Source: Acidimicrobiia bacterium (GTDB lineage: Bacteria > Actinomycetota > Acidimicrobiia > Spongiisociales > ZC4RG35). From it: a DNA stretch of 64,000 bases. Under the pieces are notes generated by a model. It ran no database searches. It worked only from the letters and a program-made list of their open reading frames with translations, and was not told the DNA's origin. The position numbers and the translations under genes were made by a program. The DNA lies in NCBI GenBank assembly GCA_965203555.1, contig CBDBCY010000004.1:777434-841433 (forward strand), written 5' to 3'. Positions 3,094 to 62,507 of this stretch are shown in pieces (the stretch's first letter is position 1; every line of letters starts with the position of its first letter).

Positions 3094-3882
3094 TTATTCG
3101 CCGTGCCGCAGGACTTCACCGCCGATCAGGTCCGGTCTGGCTGCTGCCAAGGCTGCCCCCACAATTCCCGCGTGGTTACCGAACCGGGCGGGTCTGAGTT
3201 CCACGGACACATCAAGATACCGGCTGTACTTGGCCCACTTGTTCACACCCCCGCCTCCGATCACTATCAAATCCGGGGCAAACAGGGCCACGACGTGACG
3301 TAGATAGCGATTGAGCCGCTTTCCCCACTTCTTCCAACTGAGGTCGCTCTGTTTGTAAACACGGTAAGCCACGCGATCCTCGATGGGACGGTGACCACCC
3401 AACTCCAGCATGCCCAGTTCGAAGTTGGGAATCAGCCGGCCGTCGTACAGCAGGCCGCTGCCGATCCCAGTTCCCAGAGTGATCATCAAAACCGCTCCGC
3501 GGCGACCCCGGGCCGACCCGAACCTCACTTCCGCCAGACCGGCCGCGTCGGCGTCATTGAGAACGGTGACCGGCGACCCGACGACCCCCGAGAAAGTTGT
3601 CACCACATCGGCGCCCAGCCAAACATCGTCCAGGTGGGTGGCGGTGCCGACGATTCCTGTTTTCACAACCCCGGGAAATCCGCACCCCACCGCCAGCAAC
3701 GGATCTTCCCAATCCTTGCGGAAGTGGGCGACGATCTCGGCCAAAACCCCCGCCACCTCGTTGATGGTGCCGGGACGGGGCGTAGGTATCCGAAGTCGCT
3801 TGGACAGGATCTCCCCCGTGGCGGTGTCCACAACGTTTCCCTTCATCCCGGACCCGCCGATGTCGACACCCAGAGCCAACAT
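3094..3882 (-). CDS. ppgK: polyphosphate glucokinase (ROK family)
   Basis: 262 aa. GVDIGGSGMK N-terminus, ITLGTGIGSGL, ROK fold without the zinc-Cys motif, as in actinobacterial PpgK. Confidence 0.88.
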   Translation of the reverse strand: MLALGVDIGGSGMKGNVVDTATGEILSKRLRIPTPRPGTINEVAGVLAEIVAHFRKDWEDPLLAVGCGFPGVVKTGIVGTATHLDDVWLGADVVTTFSGVVGSPVTVLNDADAAGLAEVRFGSARGRRGAVLMITLGTGIGSGLLYDGRLIPNFELGMLELGGHRPIEDRVAYRVYKQSDLSWKKWGKRLNRYLRHVVALFAPDLIVIGGGGVNKWAKYSRYLDVSVELRPARFGNHAGIVGAALAAARPDLIGGEVLRHGE

Positions 3883-5246: not shown

Positions 5247-6998
5247 CTACCCCGGAGGCCTGGCTCTCGCCCTGCGTGGATCGACAACTATTCCCAACTC
5301 CGCCAACTGCCGGGGGTCCACCGTCGCCGGGCTGTGGCTGAGCGGCTCAGCCCCGGTCTGGGTCTTGGGAAAGGGAATTATCTCCCGGATGCTCGGGACT
5401 CCGCGAAGCACCGCCACCAGACGGTCAAACCCCACTGCGAAACCCGCATGGGGAGGGGCGCCGTACCTCAACGCCTTGATGAACCACCCGAACCGCTCCT
5501 CTGCCTCCTTCTCCGGAATGCCCATGATCTCAAAGACCCGCCGCTGGGTGTCGGGATCGTGAATCCGCACACTTCCCGAACCCAGTTCCACGCCGTTCAA
5601 GACCAGGTCATAGGACCGCGCCACCGCCTCCAGGGGACGATTCGTCATCTGTTCCACGTCGGTGGGAGAAGTGAAGGGATGGTGGAGGAAAGTGATCTCT
5701 CCATCCTTTTCCTCGAACATGGGAAAGTCCACCACCCACAGAAACTCCAAGGCATCCGGATCGTCCGGCGCGCCCAGGTCCAACCGGAGACGACCCAGGG
5801 TGTCGGCGGTGGTCTTCTCCGTATCGGCCACCAGCAACAGCACGTCGCCGGGCTCGCCCTCCAGATGGGCCACCACCCCGGTCAATTCAGCGTCCGACAG
5901 GAACTTGGCCACCGGGGACCTGGGAGGAGCCTCCGAACGGACCACCATCCAGACCAGGCCTCCCGCTCCCCATTGCCGGGCCTTGGCGATCATGGCGTCG
6001 GCCCGGGCCCGGCTCATCGCCATCTGCCCGGCGTTGATTCCCCGGACCACTCCTCCCGACCCCAGGACATTGGAGAACGCCCGGAAGCCGGTGCGGGAAA
6101 ACACATCCGACAGTTCGACTATCCGCATGCCGAAGCGCAGATCCGGTTTGTCCGTGCCGTAACGGGCCATGGCTTCGGAGTACGTGAGGCGCGGCAAAGG
6201 TGCGGGGACATCCTGGTCCGGCCGCAGCGCCGACGCCACCGCCCTCACCACCTTCTCCACCGTAGCCAGTACGTCCTCCTGATCCCAGAAGGAGCCCTCC
6301 AGATCGATCTGGGTGAACTCCAACTGCCGGTCGGCCCGGAAATCTTCGTCCCGGTAGCAGCGACACATCTGGTAGTAGCGGCTCACCCCCGACATCATCA
6401 GGAGTTGCTTGTAGATCTGGGGCGATTGGGGCAGGGCGTAGAAGGCGCCGGGATTGTGGCGGCTGGGCACCAGCAGGTCGCGGGCGCCCTCGGGGGTGGA
6501 ACGAATCAGGGTGGGGGTTTCCACTTCCCAGAACCCCATGTCCTCCAGCGTTCGCCGCACGGTTCGAAGCGCCATGGAACGAGCGCGAAGATTGCCGGCC
6601 ATCCGTGGGCGACGCAGATCCAGGTAGCGGTACTCGAGGCGCAGGAGTTCTTCGGCATCGGTCCGGTCCTCGATCAGGAAGGGAAGTTCCTCCGAGCGAC
6701 TCAGGATGGTCAGCTCATGCACGTCCATCTCGACCCTTCCACTGGACATCGCCGGATTCTCCGCTCCCTCCGGGCGCCGGCGGATCACTCCCTGCGCCTG
6801 CACGCAGAACTCCCGGCGCAACAGAACGGATTCCTCTATCCGTTCAGGTTCCATCACCACCTGCACCACCCCGGTATGATCGCGCAAGTCCACGAACACC
6901 ACCCCTCCGTGATGGCGCCTGCGGTCGACCCATCCCGCCAGGGTGACCCTCTCCCCCACTATTTCCAGGCCCACTTGCGAGGCGGTGTGACTTCTCAC
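5247..6998 (-). CDS. aspS: aspartate--tRNA ligase
   Basis: 583 aa. OB anticodon-binding N-terminus (GWVDRRRHHGGVVFVDLRDHTG) and class II motifs (FRADRQLEFTQID, GAPPHAGFAVGFDRL). Confidence 0.97.
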   Translation of the reverse strand: MRSHTASQVGLEIVGERVTLAGWVDRRRHHGGVVFVDLRDHTGVVQVVMEPERIEESVLLRREFCVQAQGVIRRRPEGAENPAMSSGRVEMDVHELTILSRSEELPFLIEDRTDAEELLRLEYRYLDLRRPRMAGNLRARSMALRTVRRTLEDMGFWEVETPTLIRSTPEGARDLLVPSRHNPGAFYALPQSPQIYKQLLMMSGVSRYYQMCRCYRDEDFRADRQLEFTQIDLEGSFWDQEDVLATVEKVVRAVASALRPDQDVPAPLPRLTYSEAMARYGTDKPDLRFGMRIVELSDVFSRTGFRAFSNVLGSGGVVRGINAGQMAMSRARADAMIAKARQWGAGGLVWMVVRSEAPPRSPVAKFLSDAELTGVVAHLEGEPGDVLLLVADTEKTTADTLGRLRLDLGAPDDPDALEFLWVVDFPMFEEKDGEITFLHHPFTSPTDVEQMTNRPLEAVARSYDLVLNGVELGSGSVRIHDPDTQRRVFEIMGIPEKEAEERFGWFIKALRYGAPPHAGFAVGFDRLVAVLRGVPSIREIIPFPKTQTGAEPLSHSPATVDPRQLAELGIVVDPRRARARPPG

Positions 6999-33433: not shown

Positions 33434-33505
33434 TGGGCGCTACTGGGATCGAACCAGTGACCTCTGCCGTGTGAAGGCAGCGCTCTCCCGCTGAGCTAAG
33501 CGCCC
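33434..33505 (-). tRNA. tRNA-Val (anticodon CAC)
   Basis: Reverse complement folds as a cloverleaf: acceptor GGGCGCT/AGCGCCC, D arm GCTC..GAGC, anticodon stem CTGCC/GGCAG with loop TTCACAC, T arm ACTGG-TTCGATC-CCAGT. 72 nt, CCA not encoded. Confidence 0.93.
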
Positions 33506-33540
33506 GCTTAAACAGAGAATGGTACCTTGATTACATTCCC

Positions 33541-33936
33541 TCAGGAACGGGTTCGGGCGATACCACTCTTGCTGAGCACGGCAGCAGCCACACCCATCTC
33601 CCGCCATGCCTTATAGGAAATACCCTTACGAGTGGAGTAAGACTTGGCCGCATTGACAAACTCTGCCTCCAGCGCATTGATATCACCCGGATCTTCCGCG
33701 CGACGTTTCTCAGCGTCGATCCGTTGTTGGATCAAGGCAAGTCTCTGTAACTGATCCGACTCGTTCTCAAGTTTCTCTTGCACTTCTTCCAGTTCCTTTT
33801 GAGGCGACTTCCGACGTCCTCGACGCCCTGCCGAGGAGTGCAGGGCCTCCAAATATGCACGCACAGCCTTCGTCTGGGCTCGGGCTGCGGCTCTCGCTGC
33901 CCGCACCTCTGGAGAAAGATTTCTCCGTTTATCCAT
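33541..33936 (-). CDS. hypothetical basic coiled-coil protein
   Basis: About 131 aa from MDKRRNLSPEVRAARAAARAQTKAVRAYLEAL.... Central charged helix (QKELEEVQEKLENESDQLQRLALIQQRIDAEKRRAE), C-terminal KGISYKAWREMGVAAAVLSKSGI. The DNA is visibly AT-richer. Lies between tRNA genes. Confidence 0.5.
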   Translation of the reverse strand: MDKRRNLSPEVRAARAAARAQTKAVRAYLEALHSSAGRRGRRKSPQKELEEVQEKLENESDQLQRLALIQQRIDAEKRRAEDPGDINALEAEFVNAAKSYSTRKGISYKAWREMGVAAAVLSKSGIARTRS

Positions 33937-34289
33937 CCACTCTCCCCTTTCGTTGCGAAATTGAGAAACAATAGTAGGTGCCTTGACAATCTGCTGCAAA
34001 CCGTTGGATATTGTTTTACAAGAGCAAGTAATAACCTGTGATCCACTATCTAGAGAATCTCGGCGGAGTTCTTCTTCCTTTTATGGATAAGTTTCAGAAA
34101 CCATCTAAGGTTTCCCAACCCTCGCCTTCGGAAAGCGGCAACCAAGTAACTTAGTGCGACACCAATACTCCAGTCGACACAAAGGCTGGTCCCAAGAATG
34201 CGGTGGTGCCGAGCGATGCCCGCTAGGACTTGACCTAACGAGGCCGGCGCGTCACCCGGTTCGTGGCATTACCGGGCGACAAGAAAGAG

Positions 34290-34361
34290 TGGGCCCTAGT
34301 GGAATTGAACCACTGACCTCTTCCGTGTCAAGGAAGCGCTCTTCCTCTGAGCTAAGGGCCC
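34290..34361 (-). tRNA. tRNA-Val (anticodon GAC)
   Basis: Reverse complement: acceptor GGGCCCT/AGGGCCC, anticodon stem CTTCC/GGAAG with loop TTGACAC, T arm AGTGG-TTCAATT-CCACT. 72 nt. Confidence 0.93.
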
Positions 34362-34382
34362 CATCGAAAACACCCTTTGCGG

Positions 34383-34454
34383 AGGCGACGTCCGGAATCG
34401 AACCGGAGTAACGGGTTTTGCAGACCCGTGCCTAATCCACTCGGCCACGTCGCC
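34383..34454 (-). tRNA. tRNA-Cys (anticodon GCA)
   Basis: Reverse complement: acceptor GGCGACG/CGTCGCC, D stem GCCG..AGGC (G13-A22 as in tRNA-Cys), anticodon stem CGGGT/ACCCG with loop CTGCAAA, T arm TCCGG-TTCGATT-CCGGA. 72 nt. Confidence 0.9.
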
Positions 34455-34487
34455 GCGCTCTTCCACATCAGCGGAAAAACCTGGAAG

Positions 34488-34560
34488 AGCGGAAGACGGG
34501 GCTTGAACCCGCGACCTCAACCTTGGCAAGGTTGCGCTCTACCAGCTGAGCTACTTCCGC
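34488..34560 (-). tRNA. tRNA-Gly (anticodon GCC)
   Basis: Reverse complement: acceptor GCGGAAG/CTTCCGC, anticodon stem CAACC/GGTTG with loop TTGCCAA, T arm GCGGG-TTCAAGC-CCCGT. 73 nt. Confidence 0.93.
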
Positions 34561-55574: not shown

Positions 55575-56018
55575 ATGCGAAAACGGATTGCCTCCCTGTT
55601 CGGAGTGGGTCTCTTCCTGAACAGAATGCGGGGCTCCGACTCGGGATCGGGCACATTGGGAGCAGCGGTAGGACTGGCTGCAGCCTTGGCGGTCGGGGTA
55701 CTGGGATGGGAGGCGCAGGCCTTGCTGGCCACGGCTGCGGCAGGGGTTTCCGTCTGGAGTTCGCACCCTTTCACCGATGATCCGGGCTGGGTAGTCATCG
55801 ACGAAGCAGCCGGCGCGGCGCTGGCGGTCATCGGACTGGATCTCCCCGGGGCCGTGGCGGGATGGGTGATGTTCCGGCTTGTGGACATCTACAAGATCTT
55901 TCCCGGGATGAAATGGGCCGAACGTCTCCCGGGAGGGTGGGGCGTCACCGGCGACGACCTGGTAGCGGGAGGATACGGCTTGGCGGTTGGTTGGATCGTC
56001 CAACTCTGGCTGGGCTGA
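55575..56018 (+). CDS. pgpA: phosphatidylglycerophosphatase A
   Basis: 147 aa. GSGTLGAAVG..., VVIDEAAG, FRLVDIYKIFP, GWGVTGDDLVAGGY. Confidence 0.9.
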   Translation: MRKRIASLFGVGLFLNRMRGSDSGSGTLGAAVGLAAALAVGVLGWEAQALLATAAAGVSVWSSHPFTDDPGWVVIDEAAGAALAVIGLDLPGAVAGWVMFRLVDIYKIFPGMKWAERLPGGWGVTGDDLVAGGYGLAVGWIVQLWLG

Positions 56019-56023
56019 TCGCA
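55977..56023 (+). repeat. direct repeat copy A (functional 3' end of pgpA)
   Basis: ggcttggcggttggttggatcgtccaactctggctgggctgatcgca. 39/47 identical, ungapped, to 57764-57810. Confidence 0.85.
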
Positions 56024-57763
56024 GTCTGTCATCCCAACCCCGTACCCACTTGCGGACGAGGTCGCGATATTTTTCTTTGAGAAATCGTTGTGTAATGGTT
56101 GAAGTCTGTCTCAGGCCCGGTGCATATTGAATAGACAAACATGATTGCGGTCCGGACCGTGGTCATCAGATCGGTCTTGTTCTTGGTCGAGACGCTGGTT
56201 TGACAGTGTCCCCGAGGGCGGACTATCTAGCCGACAACTGATTATGTTTCGGGTTCGGACAGGCCTGCGCCTGTTCGCGCCTTTTGTGACGGTCAGGAGG
56301 CGGCGGGTCGGGAGGGGAAACCCAAAATAGGAGGGTGATGCCGCGGGGCAAGAGTGGGAAAACCGGATGGCAGGGGACCGGTGGCGGGTGGAGGATGGCG
56401 TCCCGGGTGGGAAGAGTCGGGGGAAGTGGTCTGTTTATTTTCGTTGTTTTATGGTGGGTCGGCGTTTGCGGGAGTAGCGGCTGTTGGGTCGGCGTTTGCG
56501 GGGGTAGCGGTGGGAGGTGTTTTGGCGGGATGGGCGTCCCCATTGGGTGGGTGGTCGGCGGAGGGTGTATCTTCCTGCTGGTGACTGGTGTACTGTCCAG
56601 TCGTTGTCGTGTACTTTGTGGTGGCATCTGCTGCACAGCAGGACGAGGTTGTCGATGTTGGTGGGGCCTCCGTCGGCCCAGTGGATGATGTGATGCGCCT
56701 GGCACCAGGCGGCTTTCGCTCCGCACCCGACACAGTGTTTGTCCCGGGCGATGAGCGCGGCGCGTTGGGCCGGGTTGGCTTTGCGTCGGGCCCGTCCCAG
56801 ATCCAGGGGTATCGAAGACCCCGAGAAGATGGCGGGCAGGACCTGCGCGTCACACGCCAGGTGGCGCAATGCCCGGGCGGGGATGGGGGTTCCATCGGAC
56901 AGACGGGCATTTTTCAGTTGTTGACCGATAGTGTCGTAATCGGCGATCAGCAACAACCGCACATCCTGGGAACGGCCGTCTTTTCCCTCCCGAGTAAGAA
57001 GTTTGGATAGGGCGTCGGCCATTCTCTGTCCCGATGTGGCCCGGTTCCGGGGGTCTTCTTTGTGCCATAGTTGTTTCATCATGTGTGACACGGCCGTTTC
57101 GACCCGAGCGCCGGTGACCGGATCGAACCTCCCGTAAAGGACGGTCATCCCGTCGTCTTGGTCGGTGGTGATCCTGGCGAACCGCCGCGACCGCTGATGC
57201 TCTAACTTCGACACACCATCATCTCGGGCACGCTGTTGTTCGTGTTTGCGGACCGTCGCCGCGAACTTGTCAGGAGACTGGGAACGAGCATCGTCCAGCA
57301 GTTCGTCTTCTGCTATGGTTCCCCGCTGGTTGGCACCGGCGATGATCCGCGCGTTGTCGTGGGAGATCTCACCTTTGCGTAACCCTTTTCGCGTTTTTGG
57401 TAGTTCTTCCAATGCTTTGGCGGTTTCTACTTCTGACCGTGCTTTCCGACGGCCCAGCAGACCGTCGGTTTGCAACACCGTTTCTACCACCTCGGTGCCT
57501 TCCCGGCGGCGCAACTCCGACACAATCTCGGCGCGGATCGCCGCTGCCTGGTTCTGAACGCGGACAGTGGACTTCAACCGCTGGCGCAACTGCTCCAACG
57601 AAGCCTCCGAAACCGGCAAAGAAGGCACCAACAAACGCACCCGGTTGGTCACGGATGTTCCGTTCACGTCTTTTCTGTTCATAGATACCAGTATGCACCA
57701 GGGGTGTGACAAACAATGCCATATATCACTAAGTTGTTAAAAGAAACACTATATGGGAAGGTC
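56024..57763 (-). mobile_element. candidate inserted element carrying a DUF222/HNH endonuclease gene
   Basis: The segment is bounded by the two 47-nt direct repeats. It contains one large gene (HNH) plus about 410 bp of apparently non-coding DNA and an AT-rich upstream stretch. It interrupts an otherwise direct pgpA-thioesterase junction. Confidence 0.55.
56435..57682 (-). CDS. HNH endonuclease with DUF222 N-terminal domain (REP13E12-like family)
   Basis: DUF222-type helical region followed by RDKHCVGCGAKAAWCQAHHIIHWADGGPTNIDNLVLLCSRCHHKVH. Basic R/K/P-rich tail. ATG 57682 is chosen; the ORF is open to a TTG at 57712. Confidence 0.9.
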   Translation of the reverse strand: MNRKDVNGTSVTNRVRLLVPSLPVSEASLEQLRQRLKSTVRVQNQAAAIRAEIVSELRRREGTEVVETVLQTDGLLGRRKARSEVETAKALEELPKTRKGLRKGEISHDNARIIAGANQRGTIAEDELLDDARSQSPDKFAATVRKHEQQRARDDGVSKLEHQRSRRFARITTDQDDGMTVLYGRFDPVTGARVETAVSHMMKQLWHKEDPRNRATSGQRMADALSKLLTREGKDGRSQDVRLLLIADYDTIGQQLKNARLSDGTPIPARALRHLACDAQVLPAIFSGSSIPLDLGRARRKANPAQRAALIARDKHCVGCGAKAAWCQAHHIIHWADGGPTNIDNLVLLCSRCHHKVHDNDWTVHQSPAGRYTLRRPPTQWGRPSRQNTSHRYPRKRRPNSRYSRKRRPTIKQRK

Positions 57764-57810
57764 AGCTTGGCGGTTGGATGGATCGCCCGACTTCGGCTAG
57801 TCTGATCGCA
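57764..57810 (+). repeat. direct repeat copy B (relic pgpA 3' end)
   Basis: agcttggcggttggatggatcgcccgacttcggctagtctgatcgca. In the pgpA register it reads SLAVGWIARLRLV* versus GLAVGWIVQLWLG* for copy A, with TGA at the same offset. Confidence 0.85.
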
Positions 57811-57846
57811 AGCCACCGGGCAACCAAGCTTCCACGGAGAGCGACG

Positions 57847-58647
57847 ATGACCGACTACCTATTCGATGCCGACACCCGTCACGCCTTGACTTCGGTCGGC
57901 GCCGGCGAGTTCACCGCCAAGGTCAGTTCCCACTGGAACATAGGAGGAGTGCCCAACGGTGGATTCTCGATGGCCCTGTGTCTCGCCGCTGCCATTCGGG
58001 AAGTCCCCCATACCGATCCCCTCTCCATGAGCACTCACTTCCTGGGGAAGACCATACCTGGCGAGGCAGCCATTCGGTGTCGGGTACTCAAGCGAGGTCG
58101 CAGTCTCTCGGTGACAGCGGTTGATCTCGTCCAGGGCGAACGGGTAACCATCAACTCTGTTATCACCTGGGGGGATCTGTCCAAGTTCACAGGACCCGAC
58201 GGACCGCCCCTACCGCCGCCGGACCTTCCGGCCGAAGCGGACATGCGCAGGGGTTTCCAAATGACGCCGGATTCGTCTTTCACCGAGAAATTCGACTATC
58301 TGATGCCCCACGACATAGCTCAGGGGGCCTCGGGCAGACCCACCGGCAGGGCACAGGCGAAGGGTCGGATGCGATTTGCGGACGGCCGCCCACCGGACCT
58401 GCTTTCCATGCCGCTGATCGCCGATGGTTTCCCGCCCGCCATCTTCCAACTCGGACACTACGGATGGGCGCCCACCCTAGAACTCACCATCCACTTCCGC
58501 GCCCGCCCGTGCCCGGGCTGGCTGACCGTCGATCAACGCGCCCGCCACCTCGTGAACGGCACCTTCGAAGAGGATTGCAACATCTGGGACTCCGACGGCA
58601 ACCTGGTCGCCATGTCCCGCCAACTAGGCCGAACTCTGACCGGATAA
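57847..58647 (+). CDS. acyl-CoA thioesterase (double hot-dog, TesB-like)
   Basis: From MTDYLFDADT...: WNIGGVPNGGFSMALCL. GGAGAG SD 5 nt upstream of the ATG. The upstream part of ORF 57778.. runs through repeat copy B. Confidence 0.82.
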   Translation: MTDYLFDADTRHALTSVGAGEFTAKVSSHWNIGGVPNGGFSMALCLAAAIREVPHTDPLSMSTHFLGKTIPGEAAIRCRVLKRGRSLSVTAVDLVQGERVTINSVITWGDLSKFTGPDGPPLPPPDLPAEADMRRGFQMTPDSSFTEKFDYLMPHDIAQGASGRPTGRAQAKGRMRFADGRPPDLLSMPLIADGFPPAIFQLGHYGWAPTLELTIHFRARPCPGWLTVDQRARHLVNGTFEEDCNIWDSDGNLVAMSRQLGRTLTG

Positions 58648-58710
58648 GACCAAGGGGATTCAAAGAGCGGGTTTTCACACCTTTTGTCTCCTACTGCTTA
58701 CAATGGCCTC

Positions 58711-59844
58711 ATGTTCAGGGAAAAGATCACGGAGCATGGACGGCGGGTTGAGACATTGCTCAAGGACTTTCCGGAAATCAAAAAACTCGAGGCCGCCACC
58801 AAAAACAGTCTGATCGAACCTCTTCTCCGGTGTCTTGGCTATGACACCGGCCATCCTCAACAGGTTGCACTGGAGGCGCTCACGGAACTTGGCGAAAGAA
58901 TCGATTATGTGCTGACCGGAGAGGCAAACGTCAAGATTGCAGTCGAAGCGAAGAAAGCCGGAAATCCGCTGTCCGTAAAGGAGACAAACCAACTGCGGTC
59001 TTACTTCACCTTCTCTGAAGCAGTGGCAGGCGTTCTGACCAACGGCATCGACGTCTGGCTCTTCACTGATCTGGACAAGGCCAACGTGATGGACGCCGAG
59101 CCCTATCTAATGGTGGACACCCGCAATGTCACTGATAACGACACATTCCATCTGGAAACGCTGACAAGAAGCCAAGTGAGCCAAACTGCTATTCACGAAC
59201 AGGCTCAGAGGGAGCGGTACAGAATACTGATCAACAAGATTGTGACCCAAGAGTTGGGCACCCCTTCCCAAGAATTTCTCAGGATGGTCGGCAAGAAGGC
59301 CGAGATAAAGCCACTTACCAAAGCCACCCTTGAGTCTATAAAACCTCTGGTAGCCGAAGCTATCGACCAAAGCCGGGGAGTCACCATCCCTTCCAACACA
59401 AAACCATCGCCGCCTGCAGGGCTAGATCCCAAACCTCCATCCCCCACTCCGCCAGCCTCCCCTCCTGCTAAGGACCCTCCCGAACTCGGACCTGGGAAAA
59501 GCCTACTTAACACTGTCCAGATTCAAAGAGCGACGCTGTTCGGGGAGGTTCTTCCTGCGAAGAGCTACAGACAGATGCTGCTAGCCGTGGTTGCCGAACT
59601 CCAGGCACGGCATCCAAACGAATTCCCGGACCGAGTCCGCAATAAGGACTTCAAGGGAAGACAATGGTGGTTCATTAGTAGGGATCAGAGCGACCTTAGC
59701 CCAAAACTCTCGAAAGCCAAGGTGGGTGAGTATTACGTTAATACAAATTTCAGCAGACTAGGATCGATTAAGCAGGCCCACCGATTCCTGATCGCCTTTG
59801 GCTACGGTGTCAAAGCGTTAGAAATCCGGACATCTGACGACTGA
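58711..59844 (+). CDS. HsdR-N-like PD-(D/E)XK nuclease-fold protein with proline-rich linker and uncharacterised C-terminal domain
   Basis: N-terminal SLIEPLLRCLGYD...GERIDYVLTGEANVKIAVEAKKAG (D...E-A-K motif, type I restriction enzyme R N-terminal-like). Linker PSPPAGLDPKPPSPTPPASPPAKDPP. C-terminal about 110 aa (QWWFISRDQSDL...GEYYVNTNFS) unassigned. AT-richer than its neighbours. The ORF is open from a TTG at 58684. Confidence 0.7.
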   Translation: MFREKITEHGRRVETLLKDFPEIKKLEAATKNSLIEPLLRCLGYDTGHPQQVALEALTELGERIDYVLTGEANVKIAVEAKKAGNPLSVKETNQLRSYFTFSEAVAGVLTNGIDVWLFTDLDKANVMDAEPYLMVDTRNVTDNDTFHLETLTRSQVSQTAIHEQAQRERYRILINKIVTQELGTPSQEFLRMVGKKAEIKPLTKATLESIKPLVAEAIDQSRGVTIPSNTKPSPPAGLDPKPPSPTPPASPPAKDPPELGPGKSLLNTVQIQRATLFGEVLPAKSYRQMLLAVVAELQARHPNEFPDRVRNKDFKGRQWWFISRDQSDLSPKLSKAKVGEYYVNTNFSRLGSIKQAHRFLIAFGYGVKALEIRTSDD

Positions 59845-59856
59845 TCCACCAGACCG

Positions 59857-61050
59857 CTAGCCAACGTATCTTGAGGCTTCGGTGGCTGGATCACCGATTG
59901 GCCTCCAGGCAAAAGCCTCCAGATAGGGGTTAGGGGTTCCTTCGATTGCATCTGCAATCAGACCGCCCAAGACGGGACCGAACTTGAAGCCGTGGCCGCT
60001 GCCGCCGCTGGCAACCGTCAAACCTTCAACCTCGGGATGTTGGCTGATCAGGAAGTTTCCGTCCCAGGTGTCCGTGTAGACACACATCTTCAGGGCATGA
60101 AGCGGGGCATCCGCCAGAACTGGCAGGGAGTGCGACAGAAAGTCCCGGCAATGGGCGACGTCTTCATCTCCGGGCGGAACGCGCGGTGCGTCCGCAGACA
60201 CAGAATACCCGGGCCCATGGACGCCGATCTTGACTACCCCCTCCCGGTTGGCGGGGAAACCGTACCAGCCGGTGGTGGCGATGTCTGCACCCCAGGGCGG
60301 AAATAGAGGAGGTCGGAAAGGCTCCGGGTCGGCCGGCTCGAAATAGAGGATCGGCTGGCCGGACAGTCGAAGGAAACCGTTCAGCTCCGGAAGAAGCGAG
60401 GGAGTCCACACTCCGGCCGCCACTACCACATGATCAGCCTTGATCTCCGTCCCGTCCTCGGTGACCACCCCCGAGACACCCCCACTTCCCACACTTATCG
60501 ACGACACCACCGCCGTCCTCAAACCGATTCCCCTAGCCGTGGCATCCCGTGCCAACAGGGCAACTACCGATCCTGCCTCCGCCCACCCTCCCCTCTGATT
60601 GAAATAGCCGTCGACGTAGTAGTCGGAATTCCATCCGGGATACCGGGAAGCTATCTCCGGTGACCCCAGCCTCTGCAACGAAAAACCCTCCTCGGAGAGA
60701 GTACGGTAGGAGTCACCCTCGAATCCCTCCTCCTCCAACGGCCTGCTACTAAGGAATAAAAGACCGTCCTGGTGATACAGGTCCCGTCCCCAGTGCGCAT
60801 TCCACCGGCGCCAACCGTCAATGGCTTCATTGGCCAGACGACAGTGCAACCGATCGTTCCCGTAGTCCGTCCTTACCATCCGGCTCACGTCATTGGAAGC
60901 CGCCGAGGGATGCGGTATGGGACCGGCGTTGACTACGGTGACCTGGTATCCCCTATCCGCCAACTCCAATGCCCCGGCCAGGCCAAAGATGCCCGCGCCG
61001 ACCATGACAACCGTTCGTCCACGAGCGGTAATCGAGGAAGAGTATCCCAT
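59857..61050 (-). CDS. FAD-dependent oxidoreductase (DAO family; sarcosine/N-methyl amino acid oxidase-like)
   Basis: 397 aa. VVMVGAGIFGLAGALELADRGYQVTVV dinucleotide-binding fold, C-terminal GGSGHGFKF. Confidence 0.85.
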   Translation of the reverse strand: MGYSSSITARGRTVVMVGAGIFGLAGALELADRGYQVTVVNAGPIPHPSAASNDVSRMVRTDYGNDRLHCRLANEAIDGWRRWNAHWGRDLYHQDGLLFLSSRPLEEEGFEGDSYRTLSEEGFSLQRLGSPEIASRYPGWNSDYYVDGYFNQRGGWAEAGSVVALLARDATARGIGLRTAVVSSISVGSGGVSGVVTEDGTEIKADHVVVAAGVWTPSLLPELNGFLRLSGQPILYFEPADPEPFRPPLFPPWGADIATTGWYGFPANREGVVKIGVHGPGYSVSADAPRVPPGDEDVAHCRDFLSHSLPVLADAPLHALKMCVYTDTWDGNFLISQHPEVEGLTVASGGSGHGFKFGPVLGGLIADAIEGTPNPYLEAFAWRPIGDPATEASRYVG

Positions 61051-61052
61051 GG

Positions 61053-62507
61053 CTAGGACCAGGTAATCATGGCCACGGCAGTGGTGCTGGCATACAGAAC
61101 CCGGCCTTCACCGGCGGCGCTGAGGAACATCCCGTTGGCGACTCTCGACCCGGTCGCCACCCTGTCGAGCAAGGCGCCGCTGGCAATGTCCACCACCACC
61201 AAGTCGTCAGATGGGGGGCCTCCCTCGGCGCTCACGTGGAAGTCGTTTATGACCAACTCGCCGGACTCGGGATAGACCACCGGTTGCATGGACGGTCTCA
61301 CATCAAGGTGCCATGCAACTTTCATGTCAGTGCCGCCGTTCCGGGAAGAGCACTCGATACCCGCCAAACCACCGTTCACCGAGTCCCAGGCTATAGCCAT
61401 ATCCAATCCCGGCTTGACCTGTGGTACGTGGACCGGAGGTGCGATAATGCCTCCCCCCGGCGTACCGAACGGCTCAATCGCTCCCCAGTCCTGGTCAGAA
61501 GTGAGGCTCACTCGGAACAAGCGCTGCGCTCCCGACCATGGCGCGGGGCGCCGCCACGAGAGTCTTCTGCCCGGAGAGACGCTGAACCGGCCGTTGGGCT
61601 CGGTGCCGTGAATGGCCCGGACGGACTCGATGTCCCCGCAATCCATGATCCAGCAGTGACCCGCAGAGAGACAACAATCCCAGGAAAGACCGAACTCACC
61701 GTTGAGCCGGCGGTAACGCGGCCGCCAAGTGCGGTCAATCTCCAGACCGCACCCACTGCCGTAGCCCAAAGAGCCGGCACCGTTGAAGTCAGCCACGACC
61801 AACCGCCAGACGTGCTCGGTCCCGGGGACGTAAATCAACTCCGTCTGCACACCGTCGATCTCAACCAGGTCGGCTGCGATCCGGCCCATCGATCCCTCCG
61901 GCAGCACCAGTGGTTCGCCCACCAACTCGAGCGACTCCGGTTCCAGCCGGGTGAGAGTGGTGCCTCCCTGTCCTTCCAGCCGCAGGTCCTTGGTGACTAT
62001 GGTTCCATCCCGCAGCGCCAGCATTCCGTTGTGCGAGCGGTCGACGGGAAGCCGACGCTCAGCCAAGACCGACAGGTCGAGGGGGTCGAGCTTGTGCAGG
62101 TAAGAGCCGTTGACGCTGTAGATGGCACCGTTGGCGTGGGCCAGTATCGATCCGCACCACACATGACTCCCGCAGGGAAGCCGAGGCGATACAGCTTCCG
62201 GCTCAAGCGCATCGACACCGGACCCACCCTCGCTCAGGTCGAGACGCTCCACCCACCCGTGGGGCTCGGGACCGCTGAAGGCCGGCATCGTCCCGCCCAG
62301 GTACCATTCACCCGGCGCCCGCTCCACGAACATCACGTTCCAGCGACCGTTCAGCCGAGTCACTACCGAAGCGGACCGGGAAGCGGCATCCAAACGTCCC
62401 ACGGCAGCCTTTTGCCGCCGGTTCCCGCCGCATTCCGCCGGCCATGGAGATGGCCAGTAGCCATCCCGCCCACCCGGTCGCCCTTCCAGGCGGTCCAGGG
62501 CCGTCAC
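61053..62507 (-). CDS. hypothetical 484-aa protein, probably all-beta (propeller-like), no family recognised
   Basis: Long ORF ending 3 nt before the oxidoreductase start. Rich in G/W/S/V with repeated short beta-strand-like segments (LYSVNGSYLHKLD, IVTKDLRLEG, LIYVPGTEHVWRLVV). No signal peptide is evident. Confidence 0.65.
   Translation of the reverse strand: MTALDRLEGRPGGRDGYWPSPWPAECGGNRRQKAAVGRLDAASRSASVVTRLNGRWNVMFVERAPGEWYLGGTMPAFSGPEPHGWVERLDLSEGGSGVDALEPEAVSPRLPCGSHVWCGSILAHANGAIYSVNGSYLHKLDPLDLSVLAERRLPVDRSHNGMLALRDGTIVTKDLRLEGQGGTTLTRLEPESLELVGEPLVLPEGSMGRIAADLVEIDGVQTELIYVPGTEHVWRLVVADFNGAGSLGYGSGCGLEIDRTWRPRYRRLNGEFGLSWDCCLSAGHCWIMDCGDIESVRAIHGTEPNGRFSVSPGRRLSWRRPAPWSGAQRLFRVSLTSDQDWGAIEPFGTPGGGIIAPPVHVPQVKPGLDMAIAWDSVNGGLAGIECSSRNGGTDMKVAWHLDVRPSMQPVVYPESGELVINDFHVSAEGGPPSDDLVVVDIASGALLDRVATGSRVANGMFLSAAGEGRVLYASTTAVAMITWS

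Follow-up and report, generated by a model that had tools for sequence, protein, structure and literature searches.

A REP13E12-like DUF222-HNH unit inserted at the 3' end of pgpA in a lineage of Acidimicrobiia and flanked by a 47-bp duplication of host sequence

Introduction

Few unexplained multi-copy genes are as common in the Actinomycetota as those of the DUF222-HNH (REP13E12) type. In Mycobacterium tuberculosis, the REP13E12 loci undergo frequent gene conversion and copies of the repeat contain an attachment site for a phiRv1-type prophage (preprint PMC13061034). As of 2026, these repeats were stated to "lack defined biological function" (PMC13061034), and the literature searched contained no description of the termini, target, function or mobility mechanism of the DUF222-HNH family. 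Here we describe a copy of such a unit in a stretch of 64,000 nucleotides (nt) from an Acidimicrobiia bacterium (GenBank assembly GCA_965203555.1, contig CBDBCY010000004.1, positions 777,434 to 841,433 of the forward strand), the whole of which is referred to as the window. The unit separates pgpA from the gene for an acyl-CoA thioesterase, and it lies between two imperfect copies of the 3' end of pgpA.

Like the REP13E12 family of mycobacteria and of other Actinomycetota, the locus combines the Pfam domains DUF222 (N-terminal) and HNH (C-terminal), consists of a dispersed repeat unit of about 1.4–1.7 kb that is present in several copies per genome, and has signs of frequent gene conversion among the copies. 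It differs in its host, a sponge-associated-type lineage of Acidimicrobiia, in the conserved ~270-nt 3' non-coding module of the present subfamily, and in having an explicit empty site together with a flanking duplication of 46–47 bp. Based on the domains, their order and the multi-copy dispersal, all of which were found, the locus can be assigned to the DUF222-HNH (REP13E12-like) family. Integrase-type islands, classical insertion sequences and IscB elements each have defining features that were looked for here and were not found, and the locus is therefore none of these. Together with its empty sites and an orthologue, the locus supplies exact unit ends for one subfamily, a 47-bp candidate cleavage target, and evidence that the HNH gene is not decaying but is preserved by selection; in addition, it draws attention to a conserved non-coding partner region. 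By itself, the locus does not reveal a new mechanism, and how the unit moves is something that we infer.

Results and Discussion

The duplicated pgpA end and the empty sites

The pgpA coding sequence (55575–56018, + strand; 147 amino acids) is intact and matches Pfam PF04608 (E value 9.8e-22) over positions 2–140 of the 141 in the profile. Its last 13 codons and the TGA stop, together with the 5 nt that follow (TCGCA), constitute direct repeat copy A (55977–56023, + strand), which is the functional gene end, ...GLAVGWIVQLWLG*. Direct repeat copy B (57764–57810, + strand) aligns with copy A without gaps at 39 of 47 positions, with a start-to-start spacing of 1787, and when read in the register of copy A it gives ...SLAVGWIARLRLV* with the TGA at the same offset. 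A preliminary description of this DNA had reported these repeats, and they withstand closer analysis. Identity falls to background at once outside both edges, the local alignment score of 57 compares with a best score of 26 among 100 shuffles (z = 19), and the BLAST E value of the pair is 1.4e-5 in the local search space; a repeat search returned the pair as 46 nt at 85% identity. When the 2-kb region was compared with the 64-kb window, the pair was the sole match besides the self-match, so the 47-mer does not represent a dispersed repeat.

A scan of one genome per species yielded 74 loci encoding relatives of the HNH protein, nearly all from uncultured Acidimicrobiia, including many sponge-associated metagenome-assembled genomes. 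In nine of the 74 (L031, L005, L042, L019, L064, L026, L022, L060 and L037), the pgpA-thioesterase junction is empty: pgpA ends with ...GWIVQLW(L/V)G*, the thioesterase ATG follows after about 65 nt, and each site has one 47-mer. In comparison with these empty sites, the sequence before copy A aligns with the body of pgpA, while the spacer after copy B (57811–57846, + strand), which is continuous with that copy, aligns with the ancestral pgpA-thioesterase spacer. An insertion between the two genes, which the preliminary description had proposed from the window alone, is thus borne out by nine relatives with a single 47-mer at the junction.

The age of the insertion can be judged from a metagenome contig, L081, which is collinear with window positions 59360–53470 (77% identity over 5.9 kb). 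An HNH unit is present there at the corresponding site and is likewise flanked by both repeats; copy B of L081 is more decayed and matches copy A of L081 at 29 of 47 positions. The A copies of the window and L081 have in common a derived TA to TG change, and their B copies a derived CT to TC change (TGG to CGG). Flank identity is 82.5% between the window and L081 and 75–77% between these two and the empty-site genomes, which makes the window and L081 sister lineages by this measure. Because both repeat copies are present in L081, the event predates the window/L081 split, and the simplest history would be a single insertion with duplication before that split, followed by vertical descent. To judge from these comparisons, the insertion is old, not recent. 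The reconstructed ancestral A and B copies differ at ~3 of 47 positions, and both are like the outgroup host sequence.

The two copies have had different fates. Relative to the ancestral-like empty-site sequences, copy A has synonymous differences only and copy B has five non-synonymous derived changes, the pattern expected of a selected gene end and a relic, respectively. Copy A is accordingly the working end of pgpA, under selection, and copy B is a decaying relic end, as had been suggested before and as is further indicated by the orthologous relic in L081. An ATG within the relic copy is in frame with the thioesterase gene (57778–57846) and would add 23 codons; this extension is probably not used, because homologues begin at the MTDYLFD position (57847).

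A different order of events would be a local duplication of the pgpA end, by slippage or an unrelated repair, with the unit landing between the two copies later or recombining in from another genome, such that the repeat would be uninformative with regard to insertion. That most other copies of the unit have no flanking repeat would fit this history, and gene conversion within the family, both here and among the REP13E12 loci (PMC13061034), makes arrival by recombination conceivable. However, none of the nine empty-site genomes was found to have a duplicated 47-mer, the unit occupies precisely the interval from one copy to the other, and another locus, L002, has the same arrangement at the end of another gene. 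We consider a prior duplication to be very unlikely.

Boundaries and dispersal of the inserted unit

Between the repeats are 411 nt without a conserved open reading frame (56024–56434), the minus-strand DUF222-HNH gene, and an AT-rich leader. The DUF222-HNH gene (56435–57682, – strand) encodes 415 amino acids from the ATG at 57682. Its reading frame is open from a TTG at 57712, but the ATG (MNRKDVNG...) is the likely start codon because the family consensus (MNxxxxNG) and the conserved leader place it there. The region upstream of the ATG (57683–57753, – strand), TAGTGTTTcTTTTAACAACTTAGTGATATATGG...TTTGTCACACCCC..GCATACTGGTAT, is a promoter-like leader that stops a few nt before the ATG and forms the conserved 5' end of the unit. 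In an alignment of 41 copies, conservation begins abruptly at TAGTG, which corresponds to window position 57751 (minus strand, downward), in the pattern TAGTGTTTGTTTTACCAACTTAGTGATAT...TTTTGTCACACCCC...CATACTGGTA..ATG. The AT-rich stretch upstream of the HNH gene that was pointed out in the preliminary description is this conserved 5' end with its promoter-like leader. A scan for sigma-70 promoters found no canonical match in the leader; the leader may nevertheless act as a promoter, and its spacing to the ATG suggests that the HNH transcript is leaderless. A subfamily-specific leader (57754–57763, – strand) is positioned between TAGTG and copy B and, together with 57752–57753, reads GACCTTCCCATA in the orientation of the gene. 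The pattern CCTTC-N4-5-TAGTG is common to the window and to the loci L075 and L076, so that this short leader is probably part of the unit, in which case copy B abuts the unit end. An exact-pattern scan of metagenomes for the 5' end of the subfamily returned no match.

On the 3' side, the non-coding region of the unit is roughly 370 nt in length, including a conserved module of 267 nt. It comprises the remainder of the 3' untranslated region, from the HNH stop to the module (56328–56434, – strand), which is conserved with L075 and L077 within the 1.7-kb unit, and the module itself (56061–56327, – strand; nhmmer E value 6.6e-64), the right end of which reads (A/T)TTCGCGAC. The earlier remark that some 410 bp lack a convincing open reading frame agrees with the 411 nt found here, in which no open reading frame is conserved between copies. 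A terminal segment of 37 nt (56024–56060, – strand) lies between copy A and the conserved ...ATATCGCGAC end of the module; it is conserved in L081, has weak similarity in L075 and L077, and holds part of a hairpin with a T run, terminator-like in form, which is located directly after pgpA (56050–56067, + strand).

The same unit occurs at other loci. L075, an unrelated locus (enolase...FhuF / PALP), has 84% identity to window positions 57751–56061, and L077, at yet another locus (Thy1 / 4HBT), has 76% over the same interval, while L076 shares the leader and the gene with the window unit and not the 3' region. These three were assigned to the lineage of the window by such similarities and not by a shared assembly. 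In two relatives, at least 11 loci (CBDFJY010000002.1) and at least eight (OZ253443.1) were counted, and at least 11 protein clusters of the DUF222-HNH family are found on one contig of 3.14 Mb; the 64-kb window has one copy only. With the 5' end recognizable in 41 copies and the 3' end in ten, the insert is a discrete unit of a multi-copy DUF222-HNH family with definable ends, and the explicit boundaries and candidate target ascribed to it in the preliminary description hold.

The octamer TGATCGCA (TGCGATCA in the orientation of the gene) is identical in copies A and B (56016–56023 and 57803–57810) and is also present at the 3' boundary of the unit in L075 (about 6633–6641), where L077 has TGCGTGCA. 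Its recurrence could be due to chance, to a terminal sequence or to a target preference. The idea of a hairpin or cruciform target was abandoned, as the folds of the repeat sequences are unremarkable.

The DUF222-HNH protein

The product of the gene has a DUF222 domain (PF02720; E value 1.5e-22, 80.8 bits versus a cut-off of 24.4) at residues 51–324 and a C-terminal HNH domain (PF01844; E value 2.2e-11). Residues C327, C330, H340, H341, N355, C360, C363, H364 and H368, which form the pattern CxxC...HH...N...CxxC-H of catalytic and zinc residues, are invariant in 34 homologues. By sequence matches to PDB entries, the HNH domain is nearest to those of a group II intron maturase, IscB and Cas9. 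The AlphaFold model is poor (predicted local distance difference test score, pLDDT, 63), and with it Foldseek gave no match in the PDB at E values of 0.001 or less, although there were weak ParB/Noc-like and Cas9/IscB hints. PADLOC and PHROGs returned generic HNH matches only. In the 3' coding end of the gene, a 30-nt tandem duplication (56452–56510; 93% identity) repeats a basic segment of 10 residues (SHRYPRKRRP / NSRYSRKRRP), and the C-terminal tail is longer than in most homologues.

With the IscB elements of the IS200-IS605 OMEGA systems, the locus shares the best NCBIfam match of its HNH domain, guided_IscB (35 bits versus a cut-off of 175, and limited to the HNH domain), and the presence, at one end, of non-coding sequence that is conserved. 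Unlike them, the protein has no RuvC domain in the NCBIfam comparison, no TnpA-type gene is present, a search of the insert against Rfam found neither an omega-RNA nor any other match at an E value of 5 or less, and no segment of the module matches its own flanks. The resemblance to insertion sequences consists of a discrete one-gene unit, an imperfect inverted similarity of its ends, and a target duplication at the junctions. In contrast to insertion sequences, the protein matches DUF222 and HNH only and has no transposase fold of the DDE, HUH, serine or tyrosine type by Pfam, NCBIfam, PHROGs or PADLOC, the structure model being of too low quality to bear on this; the duplication is variable, 33–47 bp rather than 2–15 bp, and is not detectable at most copies; and the copies are old, diverged and under purifying selection.

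The last point follows from a comparison of the window with L081, in which the ratio of non-synonymous to synonymous substitution rates (dN/dS) is 0.18 for the HNH gene (dS about 1), 0.15 for pgpA and 0.19 for the thioesterase gene. A value of 0.18 between positional orthologues indicates that the HNH gene is under purifying selection and has remained functional throughout the life of the insertion. At the same time, in the positional orthologue pairs window/L081, L075/L083 and L077/L089, the flanks are about 80–82% identical and the HNH gene only 71–73%, whereas HNH copies at different loci in the lineage of the window (window, L075, L076 and L077) share 78–90% identity with one another. That paralogues are closer than positional orthologues suggests an exchange of sequence, i.e., gene conversion, among the dispersed copies.

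The same figures could be expected of a free-standing homing endonuclease gene that spread between related genomes and was copied into a cut empty locus by way of homologous flanks, with the repeat as the by-product of one imprecise repair. Such genes, e.g., the phage T4 mob genes, resemble the present locus in having a lone HNH gene between conserved genes and in their presence or absence at the same locus. The nuclease is of the group II intron/IscB/Cas9 type, filled and empty versions of the locus exist, and in several neighbourhoods the gene occupies different nearby positions. However, the present gene is on a cellular chromosome, at 8–11 or more unrelated loci per genome, with a flanking duplication and an extra DUF222 domain. 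Homing normally makes no repeats and does not explain the spread to many unrelated loci; the filled state tracks the phylogeny of the flanks (window and L081 being sisters), such that vertical descent suffices; and the coincidences of different positions do not exceed a rough estimate of chance. Homing thus appears an improbable source of this insertion.

Origin of the flanking duplication

We propose that the 1,787-bp interval represents an ancient insertion of a REP13E12-like DUF222-HNH unit at the 3' end of pgpA, and that the repeat is a long target-site duplication arising from staggered cuts; on balance, this is the reading we consider probable, though by no means certain. One junction is 5 bp past the pgpA stop and the other is 13 codons before it, and the intervening 46–47 bp are present on both sides of the unit. 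Two single-strand cuts, at a distance of about 46 nt from each other, would have opened the target, and the obvious candidate for making them is the element's own HNH nuclease. The unit would then have been joined in and the long overhangs filled by host repair. Copy A, joined to the body of the gene, stayed under selection and still completes pgpA, while copy B became a pseudo-end that is decaying. Thereafter the unit would have been inherited vertically, with its gene kept functional and its sequence exchanged with sister copies. Of this account, the insertion and its age, the duplication of host sequence, the ends of the unit, its presence in many copies and the purifying selection on its gene are shown by the data; the cutting agent, the stagger of the cuts and the joining step are what we infer.

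Flanking repeats were sought at 46 loci by looking downstream of the gene for a second occurrence of the sequence that immediately precedes the 5' motif. Two strong cases were obtained, the window (z = 19) and L002 (z = 12). The repeat at L002 (3912–3941 and 5294–5323; 33 nt, 93% identical) is unrelated in sequence to the pgpA repeat and includes the end of an aminotransferase-like gene, with its stop and final codons; this gene and the HNH gene are convergent, and the gene end that is intact lies to the 3' side of the unit, the same geometry as in the window. L080/L082 have a weak repeat (z about 4) and may represent a third, decayed case. The preliminary description had listed three findings that would speak against its account, namely both repeats in relatives without the HNH gene, a dispersed 47-mer, and an absence of flanking duplications at other copies. 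None of them was obtained: the empty sites are single-copy, the 47-mer is not dispersed, and L002 is flanked by a duplication.

In the intergenic region of L092 (2780–4720) that is orthologous to that of L002, an HNH unit is present in the opposite orientation and without a repeat. At L078, the HNH gene is located exactly between two F420H2_quin_red genes of 137 amino acids with 74% identical DNA (3405–3818 and 5335–5748). A 400-bp duplication was considered for this case and set aside, tandem paralogues probably being the simpler reading. In an old insertion at "site 2", found in seven genomes, the left flanks are too variable for relic repeats to be read, and the reciprocal filled/empty pair L012/L033 is too diverged for a duplication to be read.

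The preliminary description had favoured site-specific integration in which the element supplies a replacement gene end, the repeats being attL/attR-like. In its present form, this explanation would call for an integrase acting in trans, or for a larger element reduced to the HNH unit (CIME-like), with one of the two gene ends supplied by the element. Tyrosine and serine integrases classically leave, as their footprint, repeats of 30–60 bp by which the 3' end of a gene is restored, and the islands formed by these enzymes are similar to the present locus in that the direct repeats of tens of bp include the stop codon and the gene is left intact with its 3' end restored. Moreover, the repeats do not directly adjoin the most conserved ends of the HNH unit, short spacers of 12 and 37 nt lying in between, and the identity between A and B cannot by itself distinguish att sites from a target duplication. 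What distinguishes the locus from such islands is that no recombinase gene lies between the repeats, where DUF222 and HNH are the only protein families and there is no other conserved open reading frame, and that both the insertion sites and the repeat sequences vary from copy to copy. The pgpA-like 47-mer was not found in the copies at L075, L077, L083 and L089, and copies of the unit occupy many different sites. The unrelated repeat of L002 again encloses the HNH unit only, and two remnants reduced in this same manner would be a coincidence. Furthermore, the orthologue retains the spacers and paralogues retain them in part, and the ancestral A and B copies are both host-like. Site-specific recombination is accordingly an unlikely explanation, and the replacement gene end envisaged in the preliminary description does not find support.

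Several considerations weigh against a target-site duplication made by staggered cuts. Detectable repeats are few (the window/L081 site, L002 and the weak L080/L082 among 46 loci). The screen, which missed the 62% identical pair of L081, is insensitive to old repeats, so the absence of repeats at other, mostly ancient loci is uninformative and the generality of the duplication is unproven. The two repeats differ in length (47 versus 33 nt), and the target duplications of known DNA transposons, at 2–15 bp, are far shorter than either. The 12-nt and 37-nt spacers that set the repeats apart from the best-conserved termini of the element also count here, although they are probably subfamily-specific ends. 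To our knowledge, no HNH nuclease acts as a transposase. Direct signs of self-mobilisation, such as an excision product, a fresh insertion or activity of the nuclease, were not seen. The copies are old and diverged (70–90% identity), unlike active insertion sequences, and CTGCGATCA, which the window and L075 share at the 3' boundary, is unexplained.

A bolder extension of the staggered-cut proposal would regard the DUF222-HNH units as a distinct self-mobilising class, in which the HNH nuclease makes cuts staggered by 33–47 nt and generates the longest target duplications known for any DNA element, with a preference for genes that converge with the HNH gene and for the 3' ends of these genes. 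The module, as an inverted copy of the promoter of the unit with a terminator behind it, would provide an antisense small RNA with a role in control or mobility, and the nuclease would drive gene conversion. We regard this as a speculation, and a doubtful one.

The conserved 3' non-coding module

The ~270-nt module is known from ten full-length copies, of which six directly follow an HNH gene (window, L075, L077, L081, L083/84 and L089) and four are solo, lacking the usual arrangement with an adjacent HNH gene (L008, 7649–7913; L049, 2825–3087; L010, 3535–3800, – strand; L054, 5212–5461, – strand). L010 and L054 are orthologous loci, and the side of the HNH gene on which the module lies differs between them. 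No reading frame is maintained across the copies of the module, and no small protein was found. The folding energy of the 411-nt region is no different from that of shuffled sequences on either strand; with regard to a consensus RNA structure of the module, the HNH-sense strand has little covariation and the opposite strand has local hairpins only. A role as a guide or bridge RNA was rejected, since the module of a given copy has no segment that fits the adjoining flanks better than it fits those of the other copies.

When read in the inverted orientation, the outer ~110 nt of the module are similar to the 5' promoter and start region of the same unit; the repeat search identified 56061–56129 as an inverted degenerate copy of the 5' region, with 57689–57753 as its partner. 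The similarity is imperfect, extends over ~65 nt, is subterminal, and is significant in four of the six copies that bear a module (z = 6.3 in the window, 5.9 in L075, 9.3 in L083 and 4.0 in L089, with L077 and L081 not significant). It also reads as a duplicated promoter region. On the + strand, a promoter-like stretch (~56100–56135) is followed by ~150 nt that include the palindrome GGTCCGGACC, and the module also holds the invariant block GGCGGGTCGGGAGGG on this strand. A terminator-like hairpin with a T run on the strand opposite to the HNH gene (56256–56287, + strand) is kept in all ten copies with some compensatory changes, and could be the terminator of a candidate antisense RNA of ~150 nt starting near 56137. 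Judged from these sequence features, the module could encode an antisense small RNA, form a pair of ends to which protein binds, or do both.

Neighbouring genes

The thioesterase gene (57847–58647), which was identified by Pfam, is followed by a gene with a type I restriction HSDR_N-like N-terminal domain (58711–59844). The latter is present in L026, L005, L022, L081 and L042 and absent in L031, L019, L064 and L060, and the neighbourhood is therefore variable. Within one 5-kb neighbourhood, the HNH unit is found at three positions in three lineages, always in the same orientation (window coordinates 57811–61325; L026, L005, L022, L031, L019, L064, L060 and L042). The positions are between pgpA and the thioesterase gene, between the 3' end of the thioesterase gene and the next gene, and upstream of an FAD oxidoreductase gene, and the window is an empty site for the two that do not involve pgpA. 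"Local hopping" was considered as an account of this pattern and rejected, the number of different-position coincidences being no greater than a rough chance expectation when ascertainment is considered. Elsewhere in the window, four tRNA genes form a cluster on the minus strand (33434–34560).

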